The notes beneath the pieces were generated by a model. The model ran no database searches, was not told the origin of the DNA, and was given only the letters and a program-made list of their open reading frames with translations. A stretch of DNA of 63,081 nt, the filler included, from Deltaproteobacteria bacterium (GTDB lineage: Bacteria; JAUYMQ01): assembly GCA_030698575.1 (NCBI GenBank). It is 9 parts of 9 records of this genome, joined end to end, with 100 filler letters (N's around TTAATTAATTAA, not from the genome) between each part and the next. Parts side by side here need not be neighbours in the genome. Positions count along the whole stretch, not along the records: positions 17,321 to 30,375 come from JAUYMQ010000055.1; 8 more parts are not named here. The stretch is one strand, 5' to 3'. The position numbers and the translations under genes are program-made. Positions 3,648 to 59,162 of the stretch are shown piece by piece (within the stretch, counting starts at the first letter, position 1; each line of letters begins with the position of its first letter).

Positions 3648-3747
3648 NNNNNNNNNNNNNNNNNNNNNNNNNNNNNNNNNNNNNNNNNNNNTTAATTAAT
3701 TAANNNNNNNNNNNNNNNNNNNNNNNNNNNNNNNNNNNNNNNNNNNN
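3648..3747. other. Assembly linker. Others at 17221-17320, 30376-30475, 33972-34071, 39377-39476, 44758-44857, 56405-56504 and 59063-59162
   Basis: N runs flanking TTAATTAATTAA, which has stops in all frames. Confidence 0.99.
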
Positions 3748-17220: not shown

Positions 17221-17465
17221 NNNNNNNNNNNNNNNNNNNNNNNNNNNNNNNNNNNNNNNNNNNNTTAATTAATTAANNNNNNNNNNNNNNNNNNNNNNNN
17301 NNNNNNNNNNNNNNNNNNNNGATGGCCCAGTACGCGTCGAGACAGCGGGCCTTGGCAGTCCTGGCCGAGCTAACCATCTGGATCGTCGACGGCGGCCACC
17401 CGCGAGGGACTAAGCACGACGGGACGGTGTTCCGTTTCCCGCCTGACAGAGAGGAGGCATGATCG

Positions 17466-17696
17466 GTGATCACCGAGGCGTACGAGTCCCGAACCATGCG
17501 GGCGGCCGAGCTTGAACTTTGCGAGTGCGGCTCGGTCGTGGTAGACGACGTACGGCTCGCGACGGCCCTGGTAGCCACCGCGAAGTGCGCCGGCATGTGC
17601 AGAGTCGCCGTGCGGCCTCTCGCGGGCAGCGGGTATCTCGTGGAGGCGCTGCCCAGGCCGTGGCTGCGAGTCCTGAGAGGAGGGCGAACCGAATGA
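17466..17696 (+). CDS. Phage hypothetical protein
   Basis: GTG after GAGGAGG; Cys-containing. Confidence 0.5.
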   Translation: MITEAYESRTMRAAELELCECGSVVVDDVRLATALVATAKCAGMCRVAVRPLAGSGYLVEALPRPWLRVLRGGRTE

Positions 17697-17805
17697 AGCG
17701 TGCGCTGTGCTACTGGTCAGGGCCGGTGCGGCTGTTGCAGAGCTTGCTGGCTCGGGGAGGCGTGGGGATGGTGGGGGTGGTGTCGGAGGCTAGCGTGGGG
17801 AGGCG

Positions 17806-18141
17806 GTGAGCCAGATGCAGGAGGCAGAGGCGAAATTCGAGGCCGAGGCCACGCAGTATCTGCTCCCTGACGGCGAGCAGCGGACCCGTGTTATCGAGTT
17901 GCCGGAATCGCTGCGGCCGCAATACGAGGCGATGCGGGCGTGTGGGTGCCGGCTGACGGGAGAGATGCTGCGCACCGGCGAGGTTTCGTTCGCGATTGAG
18001 CACCCGGAGGCCGATTACGACCTGGTCGTCGTTCCCAACGGCCCAGAAGGCACGGCAACATGGCACGACATGATTCGCCGGCTCGACCGAGCTGAGTTCG
18101 AGAAGTGGCTGGCGCAGTTCGGGGAGGAGAGCGCGTCATGA
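17806..18141 (+). CDS. Phage hypothetical protein
   Basis: GTG after GGGAGG; coupled to the next ORF. Confidence 0.65.
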   Translation: MSQMQEAEAKFEAEATQYLLPDGEQRTRVIELPESLRPQYEAMRACGCRLTGEMLRTGEVSFAIEHPEADYDLVVVPNGPEGTATWHDMIRRLDRAEFEKWLAQFGEESAS

Positions 18142-18623
18142 TCTACCTCGCCGGCATGCCTGACCTGCGCACCGAGCCGCCCGAGCCGTGCTGGGGACAT
18201 TGTGCCTGGTGTCCTCGGGTGCTCGGCGAGTTCGACGAGGGCGAGGTTGTGCGCGGAGCCCTGCTTTGCGGGGACTGCGCGTACCGTGACAGCATCGGAT
18301 GGGAGGACGAGGAGATGGACGCGCACGAACTGCGGGAGATGCTGGTGGAGATGATCGAGGCCATCGAGTTCCATGCGATCGGCTTGAGCGAGGGTGCGAA
18401 AAAGCTCGCGTCGGGCCGCATCGAGGCCGAGCGCATCGGCCACCAGTACAGCGACGACAGGATGCACTGGCTGCGGGCGTTTGGCGAGCTCGACGCAGCC
18501 AGCAGGGAAGCGCTGGGGCGACTCGATGCCACAGCGGAGATGCTGCGGGTGCGGGCCGAGAGCGTGCGGGAGGAGTTGGGGGACGAGAGGACACCCGCGG
18601 TTGCAGCCACGGGTGTCAGGTAG
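18138..18623 (+). CDS. Phage hypothetical protein with CxxC pairs
   Basis: ATG at 18138 after GGAGGAG; CAWC...CGDC. Confidence 0.6.
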   Translation: MIYLAGMPDLRTEPPEPCWGHCAWCPRVLGEFDEGEVVRGALLCGDCAYRDSIGWEDEEMDAHELREMLVEMIEAIEFHAIGLSEGAKKLASGRIEAERIGHQYSDDRMHWLRAFGELDAASREALGRLDATAEMLRVRAESVREELGDERTPAVAATGVR

Positions 18624-18639
18624 GAGCGGCTGGATGGAG

Positions 18640-18675
18640 GCTCCCGTCCCCTCTATCTTAGCAGGGGGCGGGAGC
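18640..18675 (+). terminator. Strong intergenic hairpin
   Basis: GCTCCCGTCCCCT...AGGGGGCGGGAGC; no U tail. Confidence 0.4.
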
Positions 18676-18702
18676 GCAAGCAACTCCCGAGGAGGGCGAG
18701 CG

Positions 18703-19998
18703 TTGAACACGATCACCATCAACAAAATCGAGATCGAGAACGTCAAACGTGTCAAAGCTGTCAAGGTCGAGCCGACAGCCAACGGCCTGACGGTGATCGG
18801 CGGCAGGAACAGGCAGGGGAAGACATCCGTACTGAATGCCATCGCCTGGGCGCTCGGTGGTGATCGTTACCGACCCTCCGAGGCCCAGCGCGAAGGATCG
18901 GTTATCCCGCCGACGTTGCACATTGTGATGAGCAACGGTCTGGTAGTCGAACGCAAGGGGAAGAACTCGGACCTGAAAGTGACCGACCCGTCCGGGCAAA
19001 AGGCTGGCCAGCGCCTTCTCGATGAGTTCGTCGAGCAACTGGCTCTCGACCTGCCCAAGTTCATGCAGGCCACCGACAAGGAGAAAGCCGACACACTTCT
19101 GCGCATCATCGGTGTGGGTGAAAAGCTTGCTGAACTGGAGCAGCAGGAAAAGTCGTTGTATGAGCAGCGGCGCACCATTGGGCAGATCGGCGACCAGAAG
19201 GAAAAGTTCGCCAAGGAGCAGCCCTACCATCCCGACGCACCCAAAGAGCCGGTGTCGGCGTCCGACCTGATCAAGCAACAGCAGACCATCCTTGCTAAGA
19301 ACGGCGAGAATCAGCGCAAGCGGGAAAACCTGCAGAGTCTCCAGGCACAGTACAAACAAATCAACGCACAATTCGAGGAGCTAGTTGCCAAGCGAGCAGC
19401 TATCGCCGCCGACCTGGATACAGCCTGCAAGTCCGCCCAGGACCTGCAAGACGAATCCACCGCCGCGCTGGAAGGCAACATCTCACAAATCGAGGAGATC
19501 AACCGCAAGGTCCGGGCCAACCTCGACAAAGGCAAAGCCGAAGAAGATGCCCTGGACTACGCCAACCAGTACGCTTCCCTGACCACCGCAATCGACGAGA
19601 CACGGCAGGCGAAGGTCGATCTGCTCAAAGGGGCCGATCTTCCTCTTCCCGACCTCTCGGTCACAGACGGCGCCCTCACCTACCGCGGGCAGCGGTGGGA
19701 CAACATGAGCGGCACCGAGCAGCTGCAAGTCTCCACGGCGATCGTGCGCAAACTGAATCCCAAGTGCGGGTTTGTTCTTCTCGACAAGCTCGAACAGATG
19801 GACCTAGACACCCTGCGTGAGTTCGGAGCGTGGCTTGAGGCCGAGGGTCTACAGGCCATCGCTACGCGGGTCAGCACCGGTGAGGAATGTACTATTCTCA
19901 TCCAAGACGGCTATGTCGTCGGCGCCGAGCAGGCCGAACCCGTGACGGCACCCGCTGCCACAAACGGGAACAGCTCATGGAAAGCGGGGGAGTTCTGA
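18703..19998 (+). CDS. SMC/AAA_23-like coiled-coil ATPase
   Basis: TTG start after GGAGG; Walker A GRNRQGKTS, coiled coil, MSG signature, LLDKLE Walker B. Confidence 0.88.
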   Translation: MNTITINKIEIENVKRVKAVKVEPTANGLTVIGGRNRQGKTSVLNAIAWALGGDRYRPSEAQREGSVIPPTLHIVMSNGLVVERKGKNSDLKVTDPSGQKAGQRLLDEFVEQLALDLPKFMQATDKEKADTLLRIIGVGEKLAELEQQEKSLYEQRRTIGQIGDQKEKFAKEQPYHPDAPKEPVSASDLIKQQQTILAKNGENQRKRENLQSLQAQYKQINAQFEELVAKRAAIAADLDTACKSAQDLQDESTAALEGNISQIEEINRKVRANLDKGKAEEDALDYANQYASLTTAIDETRQAKVDLLKGADLPLPDLSVTDGALTYRGQRWDNMSGTEQLQVSTAIVRKLNPKCGFVLLDKLEQMDLDTLREFGAWLEAEGLQAIATRVSTGEECTILIQDGYVVGAEQAEPVTAPAATNGNSSWKAGEF

Positions 19999-21059
19999 TG
20001 CAGATCACACGCGGCAAGGTCCCCGGAGCGCAAAAGGCCACAATTTATGGCCCCGAAGGAATCGGTAAGTCGACTCTGGCGGCGAAGTTCCCGAACCCTC
20101 TGTTCATCGACACCGAGGGCAGCACAAAGCACATGGACGTGGCCAGGACGCCCAACCCCAGCAGCTGGGCGATGCTGTTGAGTCATGTTGCTTACGTCAA
20201 GGCCAACCCAACGGTCTGCGACACCCTCATCATCGACACGGCGGATTGGGCAGAGACGTTGTGCATCGCACATATCTGCGCCGAGAGGCAGTGGAAGAGC
20301 ATCGAGGACGCTGGTTACGGGAAGGGATACACCTACCTAGAAGAGACCTTCGGCAAGCTGCTCAACATCCTGAACGACGTGATTGAGTGCGGTATTCACG
20401 TCGTGTTCACGGCCCACGCGCAGATGCGCAAGTTCGAGCAGCCCGATGAGGCTGGGGCGTATGACCGGTGGGAGATGAAGCTGGAGAAAAAGATCGCGGC
20501 GCTCATCAAAGAGTGGGCTGACATGGTGCTGTTCGCCGGCTATCAGACTTACGTGGTCAACGTCGACGGCCAAGGCGTCGAGAAGGGTAAGAACAAGGCC
20601 CGCGGCGGCAAGCGGATCGTTTACACGCAGCATCACCCTTGCTGGGATGCTAAGAACCGGCATGACCTCCCCGCCGAGCTGGATCTGGACTTCGCGGGAA
20701 TAGCGCATTGCTTTCCGCTCCGGTCGGTGCCGGCTACCAAGGTTCCGGCGGTCAATGTGGCAGCAGATCCATCGAAGCCGGCTGATCCAACACCAGCTCG
20801 CATCGAAGAGCCCACATTGCCCACTGCTGCGCCCCCAGCAACGGACGGTCTGGAAGCCCAAGGCGTCCCCCGACCTCTCGCCGACCTCATGCTTGCAGAC
20901 GGCGTATCTGTCGCCGAGATTCAAGAGGTAGTCGCCGAAAAGGGCTACTTCCCTGCTGATACGCCGTTCGCCAACTACCCCAAGGATTTCGTCGAGGGCG
21001 TGTTGATCGCGGCATGGCCGCAAGTGTCGGCGGCGATCAAAGAGCTGGTTCCGTTCTAG
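19998..21059 (+). CDS. AAA_24 phage NTP-binding protein (Sak4-like)
   Basis: YGPEGIGKST, FIDTEGS, GYGKGY and WDAKNR motifs. Confidence 0.88.
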   Translation: MQITRGKVPGAQKATIYGPEGIGKSTLAAKFPNPLFIDTEGSTKHMDVARTPNPSSWAMLLSHVAYVKANPTVCDTLIIDTADWAETLCIAHICAERQWKSIEDAGYGKGYTYLEETFGKLLNILNDVIECGIHVVFTAHAQMRKFEQPDEAGAYDRWEMKLEKKIAALIKEWADMVLFAGYQTYVVNVDGQGVEKGKNKARGGKRIVYTQHHPCWDAKNRHDLPAELDLDFAGIAHCFPLRSVPATKVPAVNVAADPSKPADPTPARIEEPTLPTAAPPATDGLEAQGVPRPLADLMLADGVSVAEIQEVVAEKGYFPADTPFANYPKDFVEGVLIAAWPQVSAAIKELVPF

Positions 21060-21092
21060 GAGTCACACATCCAAGGGAGGCGTCTAACGCGC

Positions 21093-21554
21093 ATGGCTGA
21101 TCAAGGGCACGAACTGGGATGGGACAGCTCAATTGAGAACGACGGCTCTGATTTTGTCGTATTGCCCGAGGGAGATTACGACTTCGAGGTAGTCGACTTC
21201 GAGAGAGCCCGACACCCCGGCAGCGAGAAGTTGCCGCCATGCAACAAGGCCGTCGTACACATCCAGATCAAGGGCCAAGAGGGCGCGTCTACGATCCGGC
21301 ACAACCTCTTCCTCCACTCGATTACAGAGGGCATGCTCTGTGCCTTCTTCACGGGCATCGGCCAACGGAAAAAGGGTCAGAAAGTCACGATGAACTGGAA
21401 TGCAGTCGTTGGCGCCCGGGGGCGTGCCAAGGTCGGGATCCGGAAGTGGACCAATGATTCCGGTGAAGAGAAGGTGTTCAACGAGATCAAGCGCTTCTAT
21501 GAACCGGAGGCAAAGGCGCAGCAGCAGCCGTCGTATCAGGCGGGGAATTTCTGA
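21093..21554 (+). CDS. DUF669-type single-stranded DNA-binding protein
   Basis: FVVLPEGDYDFEV...NEIKRF; position between AAA_24 and the helicase. Confidence 0.8.
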   Translation: MADQGHELGWDSSIENDGSDFVVLPEGDYDFEVVDFERARHPGSEKLPPCNKAVVHIQIKGQEGASTIRHNLFLHSITEGMLCAFFTGIGQRKKGQKVTMNWNAVVGARGRAKVGIRKWTNDSGEEKVFNEIKRFYEPEAKAQQQPSYQAGNF

Positions 21555-23173
21555 TGGCGACCGCCACGATGGATCTCCGTCCGTATCAGGTCGAGAGCAA
21601 AAATGCCATCCAAGCGGAGTGGGCAAAGGGGAACCGCCGAACTTTACTCGTCTTGCCAACCGGCACGGGAAAAACCATCGTCTTCTCCAAGCTGGCCGAA
21701 GACTGCGTTCGTGATGGTGAGCGGGTTTTGATACTCGCTCACCGGGGCGAACTCCTTGAGCAAGCGGCCGATAAGTTGAACCAGGCCACTGGGCTGGGTT
21801 GTGCTGTCGAGAAGGCCGAGGAGACCTGCCTTGACAGCTGGTTTCGGGTTGTCGTCGGCTCGGTGCAATCCATGATGCGAGAAGGCCGCCTGGCCCGGTT
21901 CGACCCGGAGTACTTCGGAACGATCATCGTGGACGAAGCTCACCACGTTCTCTCGGAAAGCTATCAACGTGTGCTGCGCCATTTTGATGGCGCCAAGGTC
22001 CTGGGGGTAACAGCGACCAGCGACCGCGGCGACATGCGCAACCTGGGCGAGTATTTCGAGAGCCTGGCTTACGAGTACACGCTTCCCAAGGCGATCCGGG
22101 AAGGGTATCTGTGTCCGATCAAGGCGCAGACCATCCCGCTCCGGCTGGACCTGACCAGCGTGGGTGTGCAGGCCGGAGATTTCAAGACGTCCGATTTGGG
22201 ATCGGCCCTCGATCCTTACCTTCATCAGATCGCAGAAGAGATGGCCGAGCATTGCTTGGATCGGCGCACTCTCGTGTTTCTGCCGCTCATCGCCACGAGC
22301 CAGAAGTTCCAGACCATCCTTGCCGCCAAGGGCTTCCGGGCCGTCGAGTGCAACGGCGAAAGCCGGGATCGTTCGGAGGTTCTGCGTGACTTTGCAGGCG
22401 GCAAATACGACGTTCTCACGAACTCGGCCTTGCTCACCGAGGGTTACGACTGCCCGCCCATAGACTGCATTGTGGTTCTCCGGCCTACCAAAATCAGAAG
22501 CTACTATTCCCAGATGGTGGGCCGCGGGACCCGACTCTATCCCGGCAAAGACCATCTCCTTCTCCTGGACTTCCTCTGGCACACGGAGCGCCACGAGCTC
22601 TGCCACCCCGCCCACCTCATCTGCGAGTCAGATGATGTGGCGCAAAAAATGACGGCCAACATTGAGGAGTCCGGCTGCCCGGTAGACATCGAGCAAGCCG
22701 AGAGGGAAGCGTCAGAAGATGTGGTCGAAGCCAGGGAGCAGGCCCTCGCCCAGAAACTCTCCGAGATGAAGCGGCGCAAGCGGGCCCTGGTCGATCCGCT
22801 GCAATTCGAGATGTCCATTCAGGCCGAGGACCTCGCCGGGTATGTGCCGAGCTTCGGTTGGGAGATGGGGCCACCCACAGAAAAGCAAGTGGGCGCTCTT
22901 GAAAAGGCGGGCATCTTGCCGGACGAAGTCGAGAGTGCCGGGAAGGCGTCAAAGATCCTCGATCGGCTGAGCATACGCCGCATAGAAGGGCTGACCACAC
23001 CGAAGCAGATTCGCTTCCTCGAGGGACGGGGGTTCGAGCATGTGGGCCAGTGGCGGTTCGAGTCGGCCAAGGGTTTGATCGACCGGATTGCCTCCAACGG
23101 CTGGCGCGTGCCGCGAGACATTGATCCATCCAAGTACACGCCAGCTGAGCCAGCGGAGGCGTGGCCCGCATGA
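21554..23173 (+). CDS. SF2 DEAD/DEAH helicase
   Basis: LRPYQ, PTGTGKT, DEAHH, TAT and QMVGRGTR motifs. Confidence 0.93.
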   Translation: MATATMDLRPYQVESKNAIQAEWAKGNRRTLLVLPTGTGKTIVFSKLAEDCVRDGERVLILAHRGELLEQAADKLNQATGLGCAVEKAEETCLDSWFRVVVGSVQSMMREGRLARFDPEYFGTIIVDEAHHVLSESYQRVLRHFDGAKVLGVTATSDRGDMRNLGEYFESLAYEYTLPKAIREGYLCPIKAQTIPLRLDLTSVGVQAGDFKTSDLGSALDPYLHQIAEEMAEHCLDRRTLVFLPLIATSQKFQTILAAKGFRAVECNGESRDRSEVLRDFAGGKYDVLTNSALLTEGYDCPPIDCIVVLRPTKIRSYYSQMVGRGTRLYPGKDHLLLLDFLWHTERHELCHPAHLICESDDVAQKMTANIEESGCPVDIEQAEREASEDVVEAREQALAQKLSEMKRRKRALVDPLQFEMSIQAEDLAGYVPSFGWEMGPPTEKQVGALEKAGILPDEVESAGKASKILDRLSIRRIEGLTTPKQIRFLEGRGFEHVGQWRFESAKGLIDRIASNGWRVPRDIDPSKYTPAEPAEAWPA

Positions 23174-25386
23174 ACGGCAACGGCAAGCTCGACCTGGGAA
23201 TTCTAAGTCACATCGACCCGTCCGCTCTCCATTATCAGGAGTGGCTCTCCGTCGGCATGGTCCTCAAAGACCAGGGCTACACGGCGTCCCAGTGGGATGC
23301 GTGGAGTCAACGCGACTCGGGCCGATACAAGGCGGGCGAGTGCTATCGCAAATGGGATGGGTTCCACGGGTCGAGCAACCCGGTCACCGCGGCGACCATC
23401 GTCCAACTAGCCAAAGAGCAGGGGTGGATGCCCCAAAGCGGCGCAGATGCCTATGAACTCGAATGGGATGCGGTCATTGGCTCGAAGGACGAGAAGGTGA
23501 TCATCGACCGCAACTGGATCGAGGGCGTCGAGGTCGTCGAGCCGGACGAATGGGACCCCATCGGGCAGTTGGTTACGTACCTGGAGACGCTGTTCGAGGC
23601 GGGCGAGAATGTCGGCTACGTCACAGAAAGCTGGGAAAAAGACGGGAAATATCTGCCGAGCAAGGGGGCCTGGGACCGTACCGCCGGCGAGCTGATTCAA
23701 GCGCTTGCCGGGTGCAAAGGGGACATCGGTGCTGTCATAGGCGACATCAAGCCCGAAGTCGGCGCTTGGATCCGTTTCAACCCGCTTGACGGCAAGGGCG
23801 TCAAGAACGAAAACGTCACGGACTACCGATACGCCCTGGTCGAGTCGGACGACACGGACGTCGATCGGCAACACGCCATCATCAAGGCGCTGGAGTTGCC
23901 CGCGGCATGTTTGGTCCATTCAGGCGGCAAGAGTCTCCATGCCATCGTCAAGATCGAGGCAGCGACCTATGAAGAGTACCGCAAACGTGTTGACTACCTA
24001 TACAATGTCTGCAGCAAGAACGGACTCAAGATCGACTCTCAGAACCGCAACCCTTCGCGCCTCTCGCGGATGCCGGGTGTCATGCGGAACGGTCGCAAAC
24101 AATTTCTCGTCGGCGTCAACACCGGGAGGGGGTCGTGGGCGGAGTGGTACGAATGGATCGAGGGCGTCAATGACGATCTCCCAGAGCCCGAAGCGCTCGC
24201 GTCGGTATGGGATAAGCTACCCGATCTTTCGCCACCTCTCATCGCCGGGGTACTCCGCCAAGGTCACAAGATGCTTCTGGCAGGGCCGTCCAAGGCCGGC
24301 AAGTCCTATGCCCTAATCGAACTGTGCATCGCCATCGCCGAGGGGCGCAAATGGCTGGACTGGATCTGTGCCCAAGGCAAAGCGATGTACGTCAATCTTG
24401 AGCTGGACCGGGCCAGCTGCCTGCATCGGTTCAAAGACGTGTACGGCGCACTGGGGTGGGATCCGGCTAACCTCGCCAACATCGACATTTGGAACCTTCG
24501 GGGCAAAGCCGTTCCCATGGACCGCCTGGCACCGAAGCTCATTCGCCGGGCCCAGAAGAAGAACTACATCGCCATCGTCATTGACCCCATTTACAAAGTC
24601 ATCACGGGCGACGAGAACAGCGCCGACCAGATGGCCAACTTCTGCAACCAATTCGATCGGGTGTGCGCCGAACTCGGGGCGGCTGTGATCTACTGCCACC
24701 ACCACTCCAAGGGCCAACAGGGCGGGAAGCGCAGCATGGATCGGGCTTCGGGGTCCGGCGTATTCGCCCGTGACCCCGACACCTTGCTGGACCTGATCGA
24801 GCTGGACCTGACCGAAGACATTATCAAGCAGCAGCAAAACAACGCTGTATGCAAAGCCGCCATGGCGTTGCTGGAGGAGCACGGCAAGGCGGGCGAGGTG
24901 TCACAGGACGACGCCTGCAGCCAGAGGGCCGTGCTGGAGGCGTGCAAGCGGCTCCTGGACCCCAACACCCTCCAGACGTTCGCAAGGGCCATTGATGGCA
25001 TCAGGGACGCCGCTGCGTTGCGGTCGGCGTGGCGCATCGATGGCACCCTGCGGGAGTTCCCGAAGTTCGCGCCGGTAGACGTCTGGTTCGACTATCCCAT
25101 TCACCGGACGGACGCCGCTGGCGCTCTCAAAGACGCGGAGGCCGAGGGGGAAGGGCCCGCATGGAAACGGGCAATCAAGAGACGAAAACCCAAAGAGTCG
25201 AAGGCCGCGGAGCGCAAACGAGCGGTCGAAGTGGCCTATGAAGCGTGCGGGATCGAGGGGGAAATCACCGTCGAAGCCATCGCGGAGTACATGGGCGTGA
25301 CAACCAAGACAGTGAAAAACAGGATAAAGGAACACGGCGGATTCGAGATCGACGGCAATGTCGTAGGAAAGAAAAAAACGTCCTGA
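23170..25386 (+). CDS. Phage primase-helicase (PriCT-like N-terminus, primase, AAA_25)
   Basis: YQEWLSVGMVL, HSGGKSLH, SRLSRMPG, GPSKAGKS and IDPIYK motifs. Confidence 0.9.
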   Translation: MNGNGKLDLGILSHIDPSALHYQEWLSVGMVLKDQGYTASQWDAWSQRDSGRYKAGECYRKWDGFHGSSNPVTAATIVQLAKEQGWMPQSGADAYELEWDAVIGSKDEKVIIDRNWIEGVEVVEPDEWDPIGQLVTYLETLFEAGENVGYVTESWEKDGKYLPSKGAWDRTAGELIQALAGCKGDIGAVIGDIKPEVGAWIRFNPLDGKGVKNENVTDYRYALVESDDTDVDRQHAIIKALELPAACLVHSGGKSLHAIVKIEAATYEEYRKRVDYLYNVCSKNGLKIDSQNRNPSRLSRMPGVMRNGRKQFLVGVNTGRGSWAEWYEWIEGVNDDLPEPEALASVWDKLPDLSPPLIAGVLRQGHKMLLAGPSKAGKSYALIELCIAIAEGRKWLDWICAQGKAMYVNLELDRASCLHRFKDVYGALGWDPANLANIDIWNLRGKAVPMDRLAPKLIRRAQKKNYIAIVIDPIYKVITGDENSADQMANFCNQFDRVCAELGAAVIYCHHHSKGQQGGKRSMDRASGSGVFARDPDTLLDLIELDLTEDIIKQQQNNAVCKAAMALLEEHGKAGEVSQDDACSQRAVLEACKRLLDPNTLQTFARAIDGIRDAAALRSAWRIDGTLREFPKFAPVDVWFDYPIHRTDAAGALKDAEAEGEGPAWKRAIKRRKPKESKAAERKRAVEVAYEACGIEGEITVEAIAEYMGVTTKTVKNRIKEHGGFEIDGNVVGKKKTS

Positions 25387-25623
25387 CGTTGTTTTCCTCG
25401 CACCTTGACAACTAAATACCCTGGCGGAAGAAAACATGATTTGCGTTTTCTTCCCTCGGGGAAATGAGGGAAGAAGAAAACACGATCTGCGTTTTCTTCT
25501 TCCAGGGAAACGAGAGAAAAACACGTTACTTTCCCTGCCTGCCCCGGGCCCCGGATGGAATTATATGGAACGGAATTGGAAGCAAAAAACGAGGGAAGAA
25601 AACACGATTTGCGTTTTCTTCCC
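25365..25623. repeat. Array of palindromic repeats GGAAGAAAAC-AYGATYTGC-GTTTTCTTCC (candidate replication origin)
   Basis: Clear copies at 25426-25454, 25469-25503 and 25593-25623; degenerate copies at 25365-25398 and 25504-25536. Confidence 0.85.
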
Positions 25624-25929
25624 AGGTGGAAGCAAACGTGCCACGCTGGGGTTTTGGCGTTTTCATCTCGCCGGCCCCGAATTGGAAATTCGCCGAAACA
25701 GGCTCTGCAAAGGGGTTTGGAGGTACATTGTGACGATGATCACAGGGAAGAAAAAAACACCTCTTAAAAGAGAACCCTTCGGTTTCCCTCGCTTCGCTCA
25801 CCCGTCACGGGGGAAAGAAAGCCGCCCGCTCTTGCGGGGCGGCGTCTTCCTTCCCCCAACCGTGACTAAGAAAATATTTCCAAACCAAAACCAGATGTAA
25901 AAATGTGGCATCAGGAGGACGGAAGAAAA

Positions 25930-26199
25930 ATGGACGGAGAGAGATTGAACGCCAATGGCAACAAAGCGTTTCTTGGTACGCATCGGAACCTCCAATGCGT
26001 TAGACAAATGCCCGAACTCCGGCACAAGGTTGGCGACGCGTTCGACATCAACAAAAGCGAAGTAGTGAAATGGCTGATCGAGCAACCAGAAGTCAGACAG
26101 TACATTTTCGACTTGGTCCGGGGCGGCGACAAGAGACGCGAACAGCTCATCGCCCACGATCCCGAGCGCGGCACATGGAAGGGCGTCGGCTCGACATGA
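25930..26199 (+). CDS. Phage hypothetical protein
   Basis: RBS AGGAGG upstream; coupled to RusA. Confidence 0.7.
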   Translation: MDGERLNANGNKAFLGTHRNLQCVRQMPELRHKVGDAFDINKSEVVKWLIEQPEVRQYIFDLVRGGDKRREQLIAHDPERGTWKGVGST

Positions 26200-26597
26200 G
26201 GCTGGAGTTCTTCGTCACCATGCGCCCGCCCACGACAACACACCAGACCCAAGCCGTGCGAGTGGCAAACGGCAAGCCAATGTTTTACGAACCGGCAGAA
26301 CTCAAAGCGGCCCGCGCCAAGCTCATTGCACATCTGGGCAAGCACACACCACCCGCGCCGTACACCGGCGCCGTGCGACTCGTCGTCAAGTGGTGTTTCC
26401 CGCTCACCGGCAAGCACAAGAACGGCGAGTACAAGACCACCCGTCCTGACGTTACCAACCTGCAGAAACTGCTCGAAGACGTTATGGCGGATCTGGGATT
26501 CTGGAGAGACGATGCCCTAATAGCCAGTGCCATCACGGAAAAGTTCTGGGCCAAGGTCCCCGGCATCTACATCGCTATCCAGGAGCTGGAACTGTGA
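26196..26597 (+). CDS. rusA: RusA-family Holliday junction resolvase
   Basis: TTRPDVTNLQKLLEDVM...FWRDDALI motif. Confidence 0.85.
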   Translation: MRLEFFVTMRPPTTTHQTQAVRVANGKPMFYEPAELKAARAKLIAHLGKHTPPAPYTGAVRLVVKWCFPLTGKHKNGEYKTTRPDVTNLQKLLEDVMADLGFWRDDALIASAITEKFWAKVPGIYIAIQELEL

Positions 26598-26612
26598 GGG
26601 GGGAGAGCGATC

Positions 26613-27158
26613 ATGCGCAACAAACACCCCGGCCCTTGCTACCGTTGTGGCGAGAATGTCGGCGCTGGCGAGGGACACTTCGAGCGACACAAAGGCGGTT
26701 GGCGACTACAACATGCTACCTGTGCAATCAAGTACCGAGGGACTGACAAAAACATGCCGGAGCGACCTGCCGTGAACCGCGCCGCATTGCAAACCGAACG
26801 GGTTGGCGATTCAAAGATCGTTCCTGATCCTCGACCAGAGTTAAAATACGACTCTGCCGAATGGACCCGGCTCCTCGCAAGGGTCGAGGCCTTCGACCCC
26901 ATGTGTGCCGGCGTGTTGCACGGGTTCCGGTGTGGCGGGCTCAGGCTCCATCGGGGCGGGAAAGGGTACACCCTGCGACCCGAGTTCGATCCGGCGACGT
27001 CGATCTGGGCCGATGAATCGGCGTACAAGGCAGACCGGGACGCATGGCTGGTGCCGCATACCGAGGTAATCATCACGGCGTTGAGGTGGCTCGGGAGTCC
27101 GGTCGAGGCCGCCGAGCACGCAGTTGCGACCGGAAACGTCACTGTGATTGTCGAGTAG
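26613..27158 (+). CDS. Phage hypothetical protein with N-terminal Zn-finger-like module
   Basis: CYRCG...HATC at the N-terminus; RBS GGAGAG. Confidence 0.7.
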   Translation: MRNKHPGPCYRCGENVGAGEGHFERHKGGWRLQHATCAIKYRGTDKNMPERPAVNRAALQTERVGDSKIVPDPRPELKYDSAEWTRLLARVEAFDPMCAGVLHGFRCGGLRLHRGGKGYTLRPEFDPATSIWADESAYKADRDAWLVPHTEVIITALRWLGSPVEAAEHAVATGNVTVIVE

Positions 27159-27171
27159 GGGAGGCGCGACG

Positions 27172-27684
27172 TTGGAGACAGATGCTGCAAAGGCCAGACA
27201 GACGATGGACAATGCTCTCTCCGAACACGCAGACGCCATCGCCAAGGCGGGAGTACCAACGGAGGCCGAGATGCGGGAAGCCGATGTTCCGTGGCCCGAA
27301 ACCGAGGAGGAGCTGCTCTCCTACATCCACGGCCTAGTGGATCGCCCGCACGACTACGGAACGTGTGCCTATGCCATGAGCATGGCAGCGACGGCGGCCT
27401 TTCGGTACGTCGCCAACCATCTGGGCACAAGTGGATTCCAGGCTAGCTGCGCCGACATGGATATTCTGCGGCGCACGAGGAGCTTCAAGTGGGGCAGACT
27501 TGTCGACTTCGAGAAGCTGCTCTACCCGCAGTATCTCAACAACGAGCATTTTCCGTCTCCGGGAGCGCTCATCTATGAGCACAGGGAAGAGCTCTCGAAG
27601 CGCGCGAAGGCGCTTCTGGAACAGTCAGATGGCATGGTTCATCCAGAGGTGTTGGCGCACTGGAGACTGTTGGCGGAAGCCTGA
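27172..27684 (+). CDS. Phage hypothetical protein
   Basis: TTG after GGGAGG; HDYGTCAYAM motif. Confidence 0.7.
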   Translation: METDAAKARQTMDNALSEHADAIAKAGVPTEAEMREADVPWPETEEELLSYIHGLVDRPHDYGTCAYAMSMAATAAFRYVANHLGTSGFQASCADMDILRRTRSFKWGRLVDFEKLLYPQYLNNEHFPSPGALIYEHREELSKRAKALLEQSDGMVHPEVLAHWRLLAEA

Positions 27685-27735
27685 TTCCTTCCCGCCCCCA
27701 CGCACCGGGGCGGACACCACGACCGGGAGGGATGC

Positions 27736-27940
27736 GATGGGAGCAGCATCGACAGGTGCATGGACGCACGGCGGCCCCATGCGGGCCGCGAGCCAGCCGG
27801 GGGCTATATCCCGGCACGTGCTCCGACGAGACATCCGGTGCAACTCCGGTACGGAGCGCCGGTGCCACGCAGTTGGCATGGAGGGACTAGCTGCTACATG
27901 AGCCTCCCATCTGCGGCCTGCCGGGAGCCGATCCCGGCAC
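27736..27940 (+). ncRNA. Candidate structured ncRNA upstream of tRNA-Asp
   Basis: Several hairpins, a T-loop-like arm and a long-range closing helix in a gap with no convincing ORF. Confidence 0.45.
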
Positions 27941-27942
27941 CT

Positions 27943-28018
27943 GGCCCCGTGGCTCAGTGGTGAGAGCGCCTGCCTGTCGAGCAGGATGCCGCGGTTTCGA
28001 TTACCGCCAGGGTCGCCA
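27943..28018 (+). tRNA. tRNA-Asp(GTC)
   Basis: Cloverleaf: GGCCCCG acceptor, GCTC/GAGC D arm, CCTGC-CTGTCGA-GCAGG anticodon arm, GCGGT-TTCGATT-ACCGC T arm, G73 and encoded CCA. Confidence 0.9.
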
Positions 28019-28041
28019 GGAATTGCGAAGGAGGGCTCGGG

Positions 28042-28449
28042 ATGCCTGTGGCGCGGGTTTGTGAGACGTGCGAAAAGCGGTTTTTCGTGAGGCCGTCAAA
28101 GGTCGCGGATGGAAGGGGGAAATTCTGCTCCCGCACATGCCAGGGCAAGGCTCATGCACACATCCTGATAGTCGGGGCAACAGGCAGCGGCAATCCCGCT
28201 TGGAAAGGCGGGGTGACACAAGACAATTACAGGTACACGAAGCGCTATAGGGAGCGGCATCCCGAAGCCAGACAAGCCCAGATAGCAGTGAGCGTGGCGC
28301 GGAGGTCTGGCCGATTGATACCTGGTCCTTGCGCGGATTGTGGTTCTGCGGATAACATCCACGCTCACCACGAGGACTACAGCAAGCCGCTGGACGTCGT
28401 GTGGTTGTGCGCAAGCTGCCACCGCGTGCGTCACGGAGCGACTTGCTGA
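28042..28449 (+). CDS. HNH endonuclease with N-terminal Zn finger
   Basis: CETC...FCSRTC and CADC...HAHHEDYSKPLDVVWLCASCH. Confidence 0.85.
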   Translation: MPVARVCETCEKRFFVRPSKVADGRGKFCSRTCQGKAHAHILIVGATGSGNPAWKGGVTQDNYRYTKRYRERHPEARQAQIAVSVARRSGRLIPGPCADCGSADNIHAHHEDYSKPLDVVWLCASCHRVRHGATC

Positions 28450-28490
28450 GGCTGCCACCAGCAAGAGCAAGCGAGAGGATGAGGACGAGA

Positions 28491-28748
28491 ATGGCAGAGC
28501 AAGCGACCACGACCTACGACGCGCTTTCGGCGATTGAGGCGCAACGGGAGTACGTGAAGCGGACGGGTTCGCCGAATTTCGCGCCGGCGGACGGTCGCTG
28601 TTACGACTGCCGCAGGAGCATCTACCGACGCATCGAGCACGCGGGGGGATGGGAAGGCAAGCCGTATGCGACCGGGCACACGGTGGAGGAGGCCGCCACG
28701 GAGCTGATAACCGGATGCCCGCACTGTAACTACAGCTTTTGCGAGTGA
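28491..28748 (+). CDS. Phage Cys-rich hypothetical protein
   Basis: FAPADGRCYDC...ITGCPHCNYSFCE. Confidence 0.75.
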   Translation: MAEQATTTYDALSAIEAQREYVKRTGSPNFAPADGRCYDCRRSIYRRIEHAGGWEGKPYATGHTVEEAATELITGCPHCNYSFCE

Positions 28749-28794
28749 GGGCGCGCCCAAGCACCGGCAAGACGAGGCGAGAGGAGCGAGGCAG

Positions 28795-29025
28795 ATGCTT
28801 CACGCTCGGGAGGACTACAACCGCATCCAGGACCCGGAAGGCAAGATCCCAGAAGGAGAGCCGGTTTTTCTCTTGCGGGCTCAAGACCAGGTCGCGGCAG
28901 AGGTTGTGCGCTTCTGGGCGCGACTCCATGAACTGCAGGGCGGAGACCCGGGGATGGTGCTCGTGGCACGGGAGCAGGCGGATCGCATGGACGCATGGCC
29001 ATGGAAAAAGCGTGCAGACATGTGA
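28795..29025 (+). CDS. Phage hypothetical protein
   Basis: EPVFLLRAQD motif; RBS upstream. Confidence 0.75.
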   Translation: MLHAREDYNRIQDPEGKIPEGEPVFLLRAQDQVAAEVVRFWARLHELQGGDPGMVLVAREQADRMDAWPWKKRADM

Positions 29026-29195
29026 CCCCACGGCGGACTGGTCCCCATCCGCCGACCAACGGGACCGCCACCCGCAAGCCCGGCTCCACCCCCCAACCCC
29101 CGTGGGGCTGGGCTTGCGGTGCCAGGGCCTCACGCCGGAGCCACCGCTGCCGCAGGAGGTTGCCCTGCCTCCTGCGGTGGGGGGGAGATGGAGGG

Positions 29196-29399
29196 ATGGA
29201 CGTGCACGAGTACGATGGAGTGCGCCGAGTCACCTACGAGGGCGGCGCGCAGTTCGTCCCTGTCTGCAAGCGGTGCGGGAGGTTTGTCGTGGCAGACGAC
29301 TCGATCATGTCGAACGGCGCGGGCGTGAAGAACGAGCCGAACTCGACCTGTCGGCGTTGTGAGCGCACCTATATGGTCTTCGAAGGGTTCGTGGGGTAG
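29196..29399 (+). CDS. Small Zn-ribbon hypothetical protein
   Basis: CKRC...CRRC; RBS GGAGG. Confidence 0.65.
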   Translation: MDVHEYDGVRRVTYEGGAQFVPVCKRCGRFVVADDSIMSNGAGVKNEPNSTCRRCERTYMVFEGFVG

Positions 29400-29403
29400 C
29401 GAG

Positions 29404-29670
29404 ATGGGAGATGACGAGATGGCCAGTCTCACCGAAGACAAGGGCCTACTCTACGGCCGCATCTACACGCTGCTGCGCACCTACCGATGCCAGAACACCA
29501 TAGACGAGGACGGCAACCCGCTGGAGCTGGTGGACGTGCTGACGCCGGAGGGGTCGGGGAGCATCGCGCCGGGGGAAGAGGAGATCGAGCTGCTGGCGGA
29601 TGCGCTGTGGACGGATGTCGTTGCGGAGATCGGGGCGGCCGGGAAAGGAGCACCCCCATGCCCGAAATAG
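29404..29670 (+). CDS. Phage hypothetical protein
   Basis: Acidic ORF that overlaps the next start. Confidence 0.55.
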   Translation: MGDDEMASLTEDKGLLYGRIYTLLRTYRCQNTIDEDGNPLELVDVLTPEGSGSIAPGEEEIELLADALWTDVVAEIGAAGKGAPPCPK

Positions 29671-30375
29671 CTGCGGGAGCCCCGCAGACCGCGCCTGAGC
29701 TGAGCCCCGGCAAGAGTCCGGCTCGGGTGACGGCAGAGGCCCCCGCAAGAGAACAGGGTTCACCGAACGGGCACATCGCCCTTCCGTATGGCGAGTTCCT
29801 GGCGAGCAAGCGGATTGCAAGCCGCGATGCGGGTCTATCCGTTGATCCCGGTGCGCTCCACCCGCTGCTTCATCCGTTCCAACGCCACATCACCGACTGG
29901 GCGCTCCGCAAGGGGAAGGCGGCGGTGTTCGCCGATTGCGGTTTGGGCAAATCGCCGATTCAGCTACAGTGGGCGCAGCAAGTGCACGAGCACAGCGGCC
30001 GCGACGTGCTGATCCTCGCCCCCCTCGCGGTCAGCAAGCAGACCGTGCGCGAGGGCGTCAAGTTCGACGTTCCGGTCAACATCTGCAGGCGCCAGGAGGA
30101 TGTCCGCCCTGGCGTCAACATCGCCAACTACGAGATGCTGCAGCACTTCGACCCGGCTGAGTTCGGCGGCATCGTCCTGGACGAGTCCAGCTGCCTTAAA
30201 AGTTACTCTTCCGTCTACCGCCAGCAGATAACGGAGTTTGCCTCCTCTCTTCCCTCTCGGCTCGCCTGCACCGCGACCCCAGCCCCGAATGACCTGATCG
30301 AGCTGATCAACCATGCCGAGTTCCTGAGCGTGATGCAGGGCAAAGAGATCATCGCCCTCTTCTTCACGCAGGACG
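29658..30375 (+). CDS. SNF2-like helicase domain of the kind often fused to phage DNA methylases, 3' truncated
   Basis: LHPFQ, FADCGLGKS, NYEML, LDESS and TATPAPND motifs. Confidence 0.85.
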
Positions 30376-30475
30376 NNNNNNNNNNNNNNNNNNNNNNNNN
30401 NNNNNNNNNNNNNNNNNNNTTAATTAATTAANNNNNNNNNNNNNNNNNNNNNNNNNNNNNNNNNNNNNNNNNNNN

Positions 30476-31219
<744 letters not shown>

Positions 31220-33971: not shown

Positions 33972-34071
33972 NNNNNNNNNNNNNNNNNNNNNNNNNNNNN
34001 NNNNNNNNNNNNNNNTTAATTAATTAANNNNNNNNNNNNNNNNNNNNNNNNNNNNNNNNNNNNNNNNNNNN

Positions 34072-39376: not shown

Positions 39377-39476
39377 NNNNNNNNNNNNNNNNNNNNNNNN
39401 NNNNNNNNNNNNNNNNNNNNTTAATTAATTAANNNNNNNNNNNNNNNNNNNNNNNNNNNNNNNNNNNNNNNNNNNN

Positions 39477-43029: not shown

Positions 43030-43578
43030 GTGGTGGTGGATCAGGACGGCCCGCTGGTGCGGCTCGCTTGCGGTGGGGATCGGGAGGCCTTCCGGCGCCT
43101 GGTCGAGCGGCACTACCGCCGCGTCTACCACATCGCCCGCCGGATGCTCGGCGATCCCCAGGCAGCCGAGGACATCGTCCAGGAAACCTTCCTTGCCGCC
43201 TTCAAGCACCTTCCCGGCTTCGAGGCGCGCGCGCGCTTCTCGACCTGGATCACCACGATCGCCATGAACCGCTGCAGGAACCATCTCCGCTCGGCCGCCG
43301 TCTCGCGCAGCGCCCCCCTGAGCGCCGATCCGCCGGCGCCTGCGTCGGCGAGCCCCGAGGCGCAGGCCGGCGCGCGGGAGCTAGCCGTTCATCTGGAGCG
43401 GGCGCTCGCGTCGCTCTCGCCGGACCAACGGGAGGTCATCCTGCTGCGTGACGTTGAGGGGCTTGCCTACGACGCGATAGCCGAAGCGCTCGACATCGAA
43501 GCCGGAACGGTAAAGTCGCGGCTTCATCGGGCGCGGGAGGCGATGCGCGTTCTGCTCGAAGGGGTGTGGTCACCATGA
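43030..43578 (+). CDS. ECF RNA polymerase sigma factor
   Basis: AEDIVQETF, FSTWI and GTVKSRLHRAR motifs; start probably the GTG run at 43030-43036. Confidence 0.92.
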   Translation: MVVDQDGPLVRLACGGDREAFRRLVERHYRRVYHIARRMLGDPQAAEDIVQETFLAAFKHLPGFEARARFSTWITTIAMNRCRNHLRSAAVSRSAPLSADPPAPASASPEAQAGARELAVHLERALASLSPDQREVILLRDVEGLAYDAIAEALDIEAGTVKSRLHRAREAMRVLLEGVWSP

Positions 43579-44597
43579 GCAGCAGTGAAAAAATCTGCGC
43601 CCGCGTGCGAGCGAGTTTCTCGGAGTTCCTCGAGGAGGATCTCGCCGCCGAGGAGCGGCGCGAGGTGGAGGCGCACCTGGCGGAGTGCGCCGGCTGCGCG
43701 GAATCCTTCGCGCGCTTTCGCGAGGCGATCGCCGTGCTGGGGCAGCTCTCCCGCCCGGAGCCACCCGCCGATCTACCCGATCGAATCGATCGCGCGCTCG
43801 ACCGGCTGGAGCCCGTCTCCCTGCCACGCGCGCGCCCGGCCGGCCGGCGCCGGCTTGTGCAGCATGCAGTGGCGGCGATGCTCGTGGGCGGGATCATCGT
43901 CGGCATCATCCGGGTCGTGCCGGAGGTGGGCGGACCGCTGCCAGCGCGACAGGCCGCTTCTCCGGAAAGTCGTGAGGCGCTCCCGGCGGCCAAAGACGAG
44001 TTTGCAGCGATGGATCGCGCGATCGGACCGGCTGCGGGGGCGCTGATGGGCGAAACCGCGCCCGCTCCGGCCCCAACCGCAAGGAGTGAAAGCGCCCCCG
44101 CGATCGAGGAGAAAGCCGCGAAAGCCGCTCCGGCCTATCGCGAGAACGCGGAGGTTGCGCGCGCCCGTGACGACGACAAGCGCGTCGCCGCATCGACGGT
44201 CACGCCCCACGCCGCGCGCGAGATGTTGAAGCAGGCTGCGCCTGCGGCGCCGGCGGCGAAGAAGCCCGACGTCGAGGAACCCTCTTACTACGCGCCCCGT
44301 GACGGTGAGCCGGGCGGCGCCAGGTACGCGCGCGGACTGCTTCTGGCCGCGCGGAACCACGCTTCCTGGATCACCGCAGTCCGCGATCTCGCGCTGTCCC
44401 ATCCGGGGGATCTGGCCTCGGCCTGGGCCGGACTCGATGCCGAGACGCGCAAGGGGATCCTCGCGGTCTGGAGCCGGGCGGCGCCGGTGCCGAATCTGGC
44501 GGCGGATCTTGCCCGCGCGGGGAAGGAGGCAGGCTCGCCCGCGGAGCAGGCGGTCATTCAGATCTTCGCCGACGCAATTCACCCACCCGCCCCCTGA
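43575..44597 (+). CDS. Zinc-binding anti-sigma factor (zf-HC2)
   Basis: HLAECAGC motif followed by a TM helix; ATGA-coupled to the sigma gene. Confidence 0.85.
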   Translation: MSSSEKICARVRASFSEFLEEDLAAEERREVEAHLAECAGCAESFARFREAIAVLGQLSRPEPPADLPDRIDRALDRLEPVSLPRARPAGRRRLVQHAVAAMLVGGIIVGIIRVVPEVGGPLPARQAASPESREALPAAKDEFAAMDRAIGPAAGALMGETAPAPAPTARSESAPAIEEKAAKAAPAYRENAEVARARDDDKRVAASTVTPHAAREMLKQAAPAAPAAKKPDVEEPSYYAPRDGEPGGARYARGLLLAARNHASWITAVRDLALSHPGDLASAWAGLDAETRKGILAVWSRAAPVPNLAADLARAGKEAGSPAEQAVIQIFADAIHPPAP

Positions 44598-44643
44598 CAA
44601 GACGCGGGTTCGATTGCCGGCGCGAAGGCGAACGCCGGAAAGA

Positions 44644-44671
44644 AGAAGGCCGGGCAGGTGCCCGGCCTTCT
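44644..44671. terminator. Terminator-like hairpin
   Basis: AGAAGGCCGGGC-AGGT-GCCCGGCCTTCT. Confidence 0.6.
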
Positions 44672-44890
44672 CATGCTGGCGATGTGGCGCCGACTATTCC
44701 TGGAAGAGGGTTTCCGGATCGAGCACCGGCTTGTAGTAGCGGGGGGAGGGGACGGCGNNNNNNNNNNNNNNNNNNNNNNNNNNNNNNNNNNNNNNNNNNN
44801 NTTAATTAATTAANNNNNNNNNNNNNNNNNNNNNNNNNNNNNNNNNNNNNNNNNNNNCCGGTAGAGCTTGTCCTGCGCCACGAGCCCCCC

Positions 44891-56404: not shown

Positions 56405-56504
56405 NNNNNNNNNNNNNNNNNNNNNNNNNNNNNNNNNNNNNNNNNNNNTTAATTAATTAANNNNNNNNNNNNNNNNNNNNNNNNNNNNNNNNNNNNNNNN
56501 NNNN

Positions 56505-59062: not shown

Positions 59063-59162
59063 NNNNNNNNNNNNNNNNNNNNNNNNNNNNNNNNNNNNNN
59101 NNNNNNTTAATTAATTAANNNNNNNNNNNNNNNNNNNNNNNNNNNNNNNNNNNNNNNNNNNN

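Follow-up and report, generated by a model that had tools for sequence, protein, structure and literature searches.

What occupies the 257 nucleotides (nt) that precede a tRNA-Asp gene on a phage-like contig, and how might they act? The question is raised by a DNA stretch of 63,081 nt (hereafter the window, by which the whole stretch analysed is meant) from the genome assembly of a Deltaproteobacteria bacterium (GCA_030698575.1), in which positions 17321-30375 form a phage-like contig of 13,055 base pairs (bp) from a groundwater metagenome (JAUYMQ010000055.1). Between an open reading frame (ORF) of 178 amino acids (aa) and the tRNA lies a gap whose GC content, at 70.4%, stands above the 61.2% of the contig. 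A first-pass annotation, made from the sequence alone, had proposed that this gap encodes a new multi-stem noncoding RNA with a tRNA-like minihelix, in tandem with the tRNA. The reading favoured here, tentatively and at a little under an even chance, is that the gap is a structured spacer of a polycistronic transcript carrying two RNase P-type sites, each with the same hairpin and spacer in front of it; the hairpin-plus-tRNA-like modules are probably signals for RNA cutting.

A repeated hairpin and a tRNA-like top half

Two copies of one short GC-rich hairpin (GCCGGG/CCCGGC, at 27796/27810 and 27920/27933) lie 124 nt apart in the gap and share a 13-mer that includes ATCCCGGCAC[G/C]TG. Three instances of the pattern GCCGGG-N5-10-CCCGGC are present in the window, where 0.44 would be expected, a repetition that is not a matter of chance, and the two gap copies stand in the same register: the first ends at 27815, with the minihelix beginning at 27820, and the second ends at 27938, followed by AC, CT and the tRNA at 27943, leaving the same 4-nt spacer before both helices. 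The seventh pair of the hairpin is G.U in the first copy and A-U in the second. The third occurrence (44649) belongs to another contig, where it sits within a longer terminator-like stem (GAAGAAGGCCGGGC-AGGU-GCCCGGCCUUCUC, 44636-44672) that comes after ORF 43566-44597.

The minihelix that follows the first hairpin reproduces the top half of a tRNA in exact register. Its acceptor 5' strand (positions 1-7, GCUCCGA) occupies 27820-27826, after which a 7-nt linker (CGAGACA, 27827-27833) replaces the D arm, the anticodon arm and the variable region; a T stem-loop at 27834-27850 (UCCGG at 49-53, loop UGCAACU, CCGGU at 61-65) is succeeded by the acceptor 3' strand (66-72, ACGGAGC, 27851-27857), a discriminator G73 at 27858 and CCG at 27859-27861. 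U(-1) at 27819, G(+1) at 27820, the equivalent of G53-C61, and U54, C56, A57 and A58 are all in place, and with six of seven acceptor positions and four of five T-stem positions paired, the half forms a helix of 12 positions with 10 pairs.

How unusual is such an arrangement? A strict descriptor was composed of a 7-bp acceptor, a linker of 4-15 nt, a 5-bp T stem with G53-C61 and a loop U.CRA.., flanked by U(-1), G(+1), R73, C74 and C75, with at most one mismatch per stem. Across both strands of the window it matches once, at the minihelix, compared with 0.004 matches expected and with any match at all in 4 of 1000 dinucleotide shuffles, figures that are upper estimates of significance because the descriptor was composed after the sequence had been seen. 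In 4,036,758 nt of other loci it matches nowhere, and, applied to the 400 nt preceding each of 14 further hairpin-tRNA loci, the top-half descriptor picks out parts of real tRNAs only. Set against the tRNA family RF00005, the minihelix lacks the full cloverleaf, having 7 nt between its acceptor strand and its T stem.

RNase P gauges a 12-bp helix together with a T-loop, having a preference for U(-1)/G(+1) and for RCCA at the 3' end, according to the available part of the source (PMC10731613). The suggestion in the first-pass annotation that the minihelix might be a substrate of this enzyme agrees with that published consensus as far as the available text gives it: helix, T-loop-like loop, RCC and U(-1)/G(+1) are all present in the minihelix sequence, with G in the place of A76.

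Folding of the gap

Every motif that the first-pass annotation had named is found where it was placed: an outer stem (GATGGGAG, 27736-27743, with CTCCCATC, 27904-27911), a GCGGCCC/GGGCCGC hairpin (27771/27783), a minihelix stem drawn as 8 bp with one G.U (GTGCTCCG at 27818 and CGGAGCGC at 27852), a T-arm-like CCGG-TGCAACT-CCGG (27835-27849), TGCCA/TGGCA (27863/27874) and the two GCCGGG/CCCGGC hairpins. The fold drawn from these motifs stands in part. Four of its seven helices are present in the minimum free energy (MFE) structure and in the ensemble at pair probabilities (P) of at least 0.95, namely the closing stem (0.95), the GCGGCCC hairpin (1.00) and the two GCCGGG hairpins (0.98 and 0.96), whereas the minihelix stem, the CCGG arm and TGCCA/TGGCA are replaced by competing pairings with P of 0.85-0.99. 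In the MFE fold 27762-27770 pairs with 27817-27824, and 27835-27841 with 27856-27862.

The comparison with dinucleotide shuffles that the same annotation had put forward comes out in favour of structure, on one strand. The MFE of the gap on the plus strand is -130.9 kcal/mol, compared with -115.6 +/- 4.6 kcal/mol in shuffles (z -3.33, 1 of 200 as good), while the minus strand is unexceptional (z -0.33, 72 of 200 as good). For the central 181-nt domain (27734-27914), MFE structure and centroid coincide at -89.7 kcal/mol, none of 200 shuffles folds as well (z -3.12), and the minus strand gives a z of -1.18. Background values from 62 window-strands of 257 nt, taken from the first 30.5 kb only, have a mean z of -0.19 and a standard deviation (sd) of 1.33, with one of the 62 reaching -3.3; two further unannotated stretches of the same contig score +0.85 and +0.57. 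The gap has a genuine folding excess of moderate size, and only its sense strand shows it. A separate stem-loop directly past the stop codon of the upstream ORF (27686-27732) refolds once the tRNA is included.

The leader hairpin in other genomes

A scan of IMG/VR for the hairpin followed by CAC[G/C]TG returned at least 120 matches. Among the matches listed, one on an unrelated viral contig (L181, 10786-10810, minus strand) has the same stem, the ACCU spacer and the same register before a tRNA-Ala, which is followed by a tRNA-Pro; another of those listed lies inside a tRNA, on the opposite strand. Within the 84.7-kb L181 record the hairpin occurs once, at the tRNA. The tRNA-Ala/tRNA-Pro pair is preceded there by a GC-rich gap of 335 nt (10787-11121, minus strand) that ends in the GCCGGG/CCCGGC-ACCU hairpin, and the rest of this leader cannot be aligned with the gap in the window and folds weakly better than shuffles (z -1.79).

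A second scan, with GGCACCUG and a tRNA D-arm motif fixed, yielded 33 loci, which were then deduplicated. If an abutting hairpin is taken as a terminal helix of five or more base pairs that ends 2-6 nt before the site, 7 of 13 distinct tRNA-bearing leaders with GGCACCUG possess one, compared with 1 of 12 distinct non-tRNA matches (Fisher p 0.03), in a comparison for which the leader motif was set by the search itself; the stems of these hairpins differ in sequence. Among 401 sampled genomes of one phylum, GGCACCUG stands before a tRNA D arm in three and the reversed control in five, so GGCACCUG is not a common host leader in the sampled phylum. A 'hairpin-ACCU-tRNA' leader class is suggested but not established.

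A different arrangement is seen at L092 (1961-2035; also L093 and L094), where a tRNA-Trp lies just upstream of a relative (54% identity) of the protein encoded before the gap, and the 5' end of that tRNA lies 2 nt past the end of a 12-bp GC hairpin.

A proposed pre-tRNA leader with two predicted cleavage sites

On the favoured reading, a polycistronic phage transcript would begin with the replication genes, span tRNA-Asp and continue into the gene of an HNH endonuclease. Gene order points to co-transcription of the gap with the tRNA, as does the absence of promoter- and terminator-like sites: between 26500 and 29000 there is no sigma-70-like promoter and no intrinsic-terminator-like site, the two hairpins being followed by ACGUGC and ACCUGG with no U tract. 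Such a transcript would carry two tandem modules of one design, in which a GC hairpin of 6-7 bp and a 4-nt AC(G/C)U lead up to a coaxial acceptor/T-arm helix that starts with G(+1). The real tRNA-Asp is the downstream module; the upstream one (27820-27861) would be a 'top half only' tRNA, perhaps descended from a tRNA copy. RNase P would be expected to cut before each G(+1), at 27819/27820 and at 27942/27943, so that the RNA on the upstream side of a cut would terminate in a GC hairpin, which might shield it from 3' exonucleases or set the pace of cleavage. Should the rest of the 181-nt domain have any role, it is one that we infer.

There are precedents for parts of this scheme. Several phage-derived and mRNA substrates that are not tRNAs are cut by RNase P, and for hisCD the proposal is that the cut stabilises one part of a polycistronic mRNA, as the available part of the article describes (PMC10731613).

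Several observations nonetheless weigh against the favoured reading. Firstly, the minihelix is imperfect, with mismatches at the helix junction (7.66 A.A and 49.65 U.U), G55 for U55 and CCG for CCA. It is absent from the MFE structure and the ensemble of the whole gap, where the competitors given above prevail, and forcing it costs 3.5 kcal/mol (-127.4 compared with -130.9). A second tRNA is recognised neither by a tRNA model (Infernal, E <= 10, 27500-28200) nor by ARAGORN with default settings; at its 80% threshold ARAGORN reports 15 'genes' in the 13-kb contig, a result that amounts to noise. Deprived of its flank rules, the descriptor has four matches in the window, where shuffles have 2.3 +/- 1.7. 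Secondly, a stable stem-loop near the site drops the rate of RNase P about 10-fold, and pairing of the leader with the 3' end is an anti-determinant (PMC10731613). Here the leader residues G27818 and U27819 (-2 and -1) can pair with C27859 and G27858 and so lengthen the stem; on what the accessible text of that source says, this pairing and the nearby stem-loops count against efficient cleavage. Thirdly, an abutting hairpin is no general feature of phage tRNAs, such a helix preceding 6 of 23 unselected solo phage tRNAs, compared with 101 of 460 random positions. Nor do the two units resemble each other closely: unit A (27796-27919) aligned with unit B (27920-28044) gives a z of 1.39, or -0.55 without the hairpin, and with no significant shared sequence beyond the hairpin an origin by duplication is unproven. 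Lastly, there is neither homologue nor covariation in the searches reported below.

Alternative explanations

The sternest competitor is that the gap is a functionless spacer, holding a decayed, dead tRNA copy and a duplicated hairpin, with its folding otherwise owed to a GC-rich (70%) sequence. We judge this unlikely, if by no means negligible. The GC content of the gap relative to its contig speaks for it, as do the imperfection of the minihelix and its absence from the MFE structure, and the gap is specific to one lineage; moreover, a z of -3.3 is just some 2.4 sd from the window background and is equalled by 1 of 62 control window-strands. A mere compositional effect sits poorly, however, with a folding excess that differs between the strands and with other non-annotated stretches of the contig that fold no better than shuffles, and the identical spacer register and the intact RNase P-type flanks would be unexpected in a freely decaying copy.

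Improbable, in our estimation, is a trans-acting role, in which the domain of about 180 nt or the minihelix of about 40 nt would be freed from the tRNA precursor and act as a stable phage noncoding RNA or tRNA mimic directed at host factors, for instance tRNA-targeting nucleases (as a decoy), the CCA-adding enzyme or a synthetase. The more specific form of this idea, that two RNase P cuts, each with the same GC hairpin and AC(N)U spacer, free the minihelix (G73-CC) or the 181-nt domain as a purposely made, trans-acting tRNA mimic, is about as improbable; in that event the RNA might act as a sponge for a host defence nuclease that targets tRNAs or for an enzyme that modifies tRNA ends, or it might be a bacterial or phage counterpart of the organellar t-elements, which punctuate polycistronic mRNAs. 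What makes the idea attractive is a well-defined domain fold (identical MFE structure and centroid, z -3.12) and a tRNA-like top half with G73 and CC, adjoining a phage tRNA and flanked by putative processing sites. Yet an orphan that shows no covariation is indistinguishable from a cis-acting leader, its syntenic relatives have neither the gap nor the tRNA, and homologues were found in none of the collections searched (IMG/VR, metagenomes, genome scans, GenBank phages and PLSDB).

Those searches started from the neighbouring genes as well as from the gap. Relatives of the upstream protein (8 on viral contigs, 40 from metagenomes and 2 from genomes; 44-65% identity) have neither the gap nor a tRNA downstream, and their gene mostly abuts the next one. 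No gap accompanies the HNH relatives (80 of 113), and at 12 loci with primase relatives (47-68% identity, nine of them also with RusA) both gap and tRNA are missing at the place concerned. A homologue of 27734-27914 was returned neither by blastn and nhmmer over 130 loci nor by blastn over 12 and 120 loci. In IMG/VR the exact 42-mer of the minihelix has no match, and a tRNA-Asp core pattern has none either; in 50,697 GenBank phage records, blastn gives the gap short chance matches only (E 0.2-0.8) and it is only the tRNA that matches, and PLSDB yields no match. A covariance model (R1), for which the one sequence and its MFE fold were the sole input, finds itself only, in 157 of about 298 loci. 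A weak match of this model at L122:28-187 (17.5 bits) was rejected, with many broken pairs and a position inside a coding ORF (31-351). While the leader hairpin recurs elsewhere, the 181-nt domain has no homologue in any of these searches. Since these searches gave no homologue, covariation is lacking too, and the case for a new RNA family is not made; the claim of one in the first-pass annotation, which had itself made the absence of homologues or covariation decisive, therefore falls at present. In the full-text literature, supplements aside, no description of such a phage element was found.

The remark in the first-pass annotation that the element matched no family known to it fares better. 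Against the 4227 models of Rfam 15 at gathering thresholds, the tRNA alone matches, and cmscan at E <= 10 over 27500-28200 adds three matches at 16-20 bits, compared with thresholds of 60-99. The models cover HNH-associated HEARO/omega RNA, 6S, tmRNA, riboswitches and leaders; the HNH ORF, at 135 aa, is presumably too short for an IscB-type protein.

Very unlikely is an explanation at the level of DNA, by which the two GCCGGG-N7/8-CCCGGC palindromes, 124 bp apart, would bind a dimeric protein as an operator, an origin or a recombination site. Both copies are indeed perfect inverted repeats with a conserved flank, in a region between replication genes and a nuclease gene. A DNA site, however, does not account for a folding excess confined to the sense strand, for a seventh pair (G.U or A-U) that keeps pairing in sense-strand RNA only, for hairpins in fixed register with tRNA-type helices, or for the single occurrence of the hairpin in the 84.7 kb of L181, at a tRNA.

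The gap is non-coding in that it carries no coding signal. Its three sense ORFs have flat codon-position GC (0.67-0.73, compared with about 0.62/0.45/0.72 in genes of the contig), and the codon log-odds of -0.06 lies below the +0.36 of gene chunks and above the -0.35 of off-frames. Five gap ORFs compared with PHROG gave no match, and the gap ORFs are absent from a collection of 15 billion proteins. GGAGG is common in the contig (38 copies, 32 expected), so Shine-Dalgarno-like GGAGGG motifs in the gap are uninformative. That a small protein is encoded by the 54-aa ORF at 27737-27901 is barely credible: the frame is open and has a Shine-Dalgarno-like GGGAGGG at a good distance, 5 nt before its ATG, but it shows no codon periodicity, belongs to no PHROG family, is missing as an exact sequence from the 15-billion-protein collection, and in a phmmer search of 1.84 billion representatives has three matches at E <= 1e-3, all to long repetitive proteins (431-4481 aa) with several short stretches each and hence of low complexity.

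Relation to known systems

Structured RNAs made from tRNA precursors are known in phages: the species 1 and 2 RNAs of phage T4, stable RNAs of unknown function, are co-transcribed with its tRNA cluster and arise from the same precursors as the phage tRNAs. With these the gap has no sequence similarity in the blastn search of 50,697 GenBank phage records. Truncated or pseudo-tRNA genes are likewise a feature of phage tRNA regions, where remnants lie beside an intact tRNA. Unlike an ordinary pseudo-tRNA, the upstream module would have lost exactly positions 8-48 while keeping the coaxial helix, U(-1), G(+1), G73, CC and a leader hairpin of its own.

By its predicted behaviour, the element would function most like the t-elements and the non-tRNA substrates of RNase P, and it fits no curated family. 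The t-elements of plant mitochondria are tRNA-like structures in the flanks of mRNAs that direct cleavage by RNase P and RNase Z (PMC1920247). What they share with the gap, so far as the available text of that source describes them, is an incomplete or non-canonical cloverleaf within a longer transcript near genes, proposed as a cis signal for tRNA-processing nucleases, and the work on them also invokes stem-loops that mimic acceptor stems (PMC1920247). T-elements are, however, organellar, are served by a protein-only RNase P and have mapped RNA ends, whereas the phage element belongs to a bacterial host, comprises the acceptor/T-arm half only and is known from sequence alone; there is no sequence relationship between the two.

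The non-tRNA RNase P substrates of Escherichia coli and its phages resemble the minihelix in their helix of about 12 bp, their U(-1)/G(+1) and their 3' RCC(A) (PMC10731613). They have been demonstrated experimentally, and two of them, C4 and 4.5S, have no T-loop where the minihelix has one; the minihelix differs from those described in the accessible part of that article by its CCG end and its two helix mismatches. Leader stem-loops of bacterial pre-tRNAs provide a further parallel: in E. coli valVW they slow cleavage about 10-fold and enforce an order of processing (PMC10731613), and there too a stable stem-loop lies a few nt upstream of the RNase P site. In the gap, unlike valVW as the available text presents it, the same hairpin is repeated before two modules, 4 nt from the predicted site.

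A tRNA-half module with a duplicated leader hairpin is a specific and testable oddity, albeit an orphan represented by a single metagenome sequence. If RNase P cuts the minihelix, this would be a natural phage case of a tRNA half serving as RNA punctuation, a device documented in plant mitochondria and in a few E. coli and phage RNAs but not known as a designed module with a repeated leader hairpin, and it would furnish a simple sequence descriptor by which phage genomes might be searched for further sites. Failing such a cut, the gap would be a GC-rich pre-tRNA leader of the ordinary kind that contains a dead tRNA copy. For the present, the element opens no long-standing question.

Genomic context

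The genes of the contig that carries the gap are of phage type only and all lie on the plus strand; they are listed in Table 1 together with the features of the gap. The window itself is not one molecule, nine contigs having been concatenated through eight artificial joints (N44-TTAATTAATTAA-N44), and because these joints lie between contigs, 'host' genes elsewhere in the window are not physically linked to the phage-like contig. ORFs that reach a joint are truncated by contig ends (for example 29487-30431), and a chorismate synthase fragment at such an end (30500-31219) is missing the first 111 profile positions.

Table 1. Positions in the window of the gap features, the genes of the phage-like contig and the artificial joints
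Feature	Position	Strand	Remarks
AAA_23 and AAA_24 ATPases	contig 17321-30375	+	
ResIII/DEAD helicase	contig 17321-30375	+	phrog_16
PriCT/AAA_25 primase	contig 17321-30375	+	phrog_2597, 1164 bits
RusA	contig 17321-30375	+	
Two unknown ORFs (before the gap)	contig 17321-30375	+	
Upstream ORF, 178 aa	27148-27684	+	no Pfam or PHROG family; stop TGA (27682-27684) opens the gap
5' stem-loop, UCCUUCCC/GGGAGGGA 8 bp and GCCCC/GGGGC 5 bp	27686-27732	+	mean pair probabilities 0.89, 0.95
Central 181-nt multi-branch domain, four inner branches	27734-27914	+	closed by GCGAUGGGAGC / G.CUCCCAUC.GC
Hairpin 1, GCCGGG(G)-loop-(U)CCCGGC and spacer ACGU	27796-27819	+	P 0.98
Top-half tRNA-like minihelix	27820-27861	+	from sequence and descriptor; folds so in isolation, -17.9 kcal/mol
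Hairpin 2, (U)GCCGGGA-loop-UCCCGGC(A) and spacer ACCU up to tRNA 5' end	27919-27942	+	P 0.96
tRNA-Asp (GTC), encoded CCA	27943-28018	+	ARAGORN; Rfam RF00005, 62.7 bits
HNH endonuclease gene, 135-aa ORF	28042-28449	+	phrog_2340, E 1.8e-20; begins 23 nt past the tRNA
SNF2-type helicase, cut by contig end	contig 17321-30375	+	
Artificial joints	3648-3747, 17221-17320, 30376-30475, 33972-34071, 39377-39476, 44758-44857, 56405-56504, 59063-59162		

Downstream of the HNH gene, a 207-aa ORF at 28739-29362 shows atypical GC at its codon positions (0.64/0.65/0.71), belongs to no Pfam or PHROG family and lacks relatives in IMG/VR; as delimited it may be no real gene.

Most of the gap with its downstream flank (27701-28806) is reproduced without differences by contigs of two DNA runs from one groundwater-metagenome study, runs that may themselves be the source of the window; no RNA run is listed as containing the sequence. 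In one of these runs (X1), a contig of low depth (2) joins 28015 to 28458 with a 4-nt overlap, CCAG; in this form the tRNA-Asp is kept and the HNH gene is absent, the breakpoint lying 9 nt past the HNH stop. The junction hints at a mobile HNH gene, inserted behind the tRNA in the manner of homing elements, although the contig is weak, its shorter side measuring 22 nt (under 30 nt). A second contig of the same run and depth, 86 nt long, covers 27696-27769 with five substitutions and two indels, which places a diverged variant of the 5' part of the gap in the same sample.

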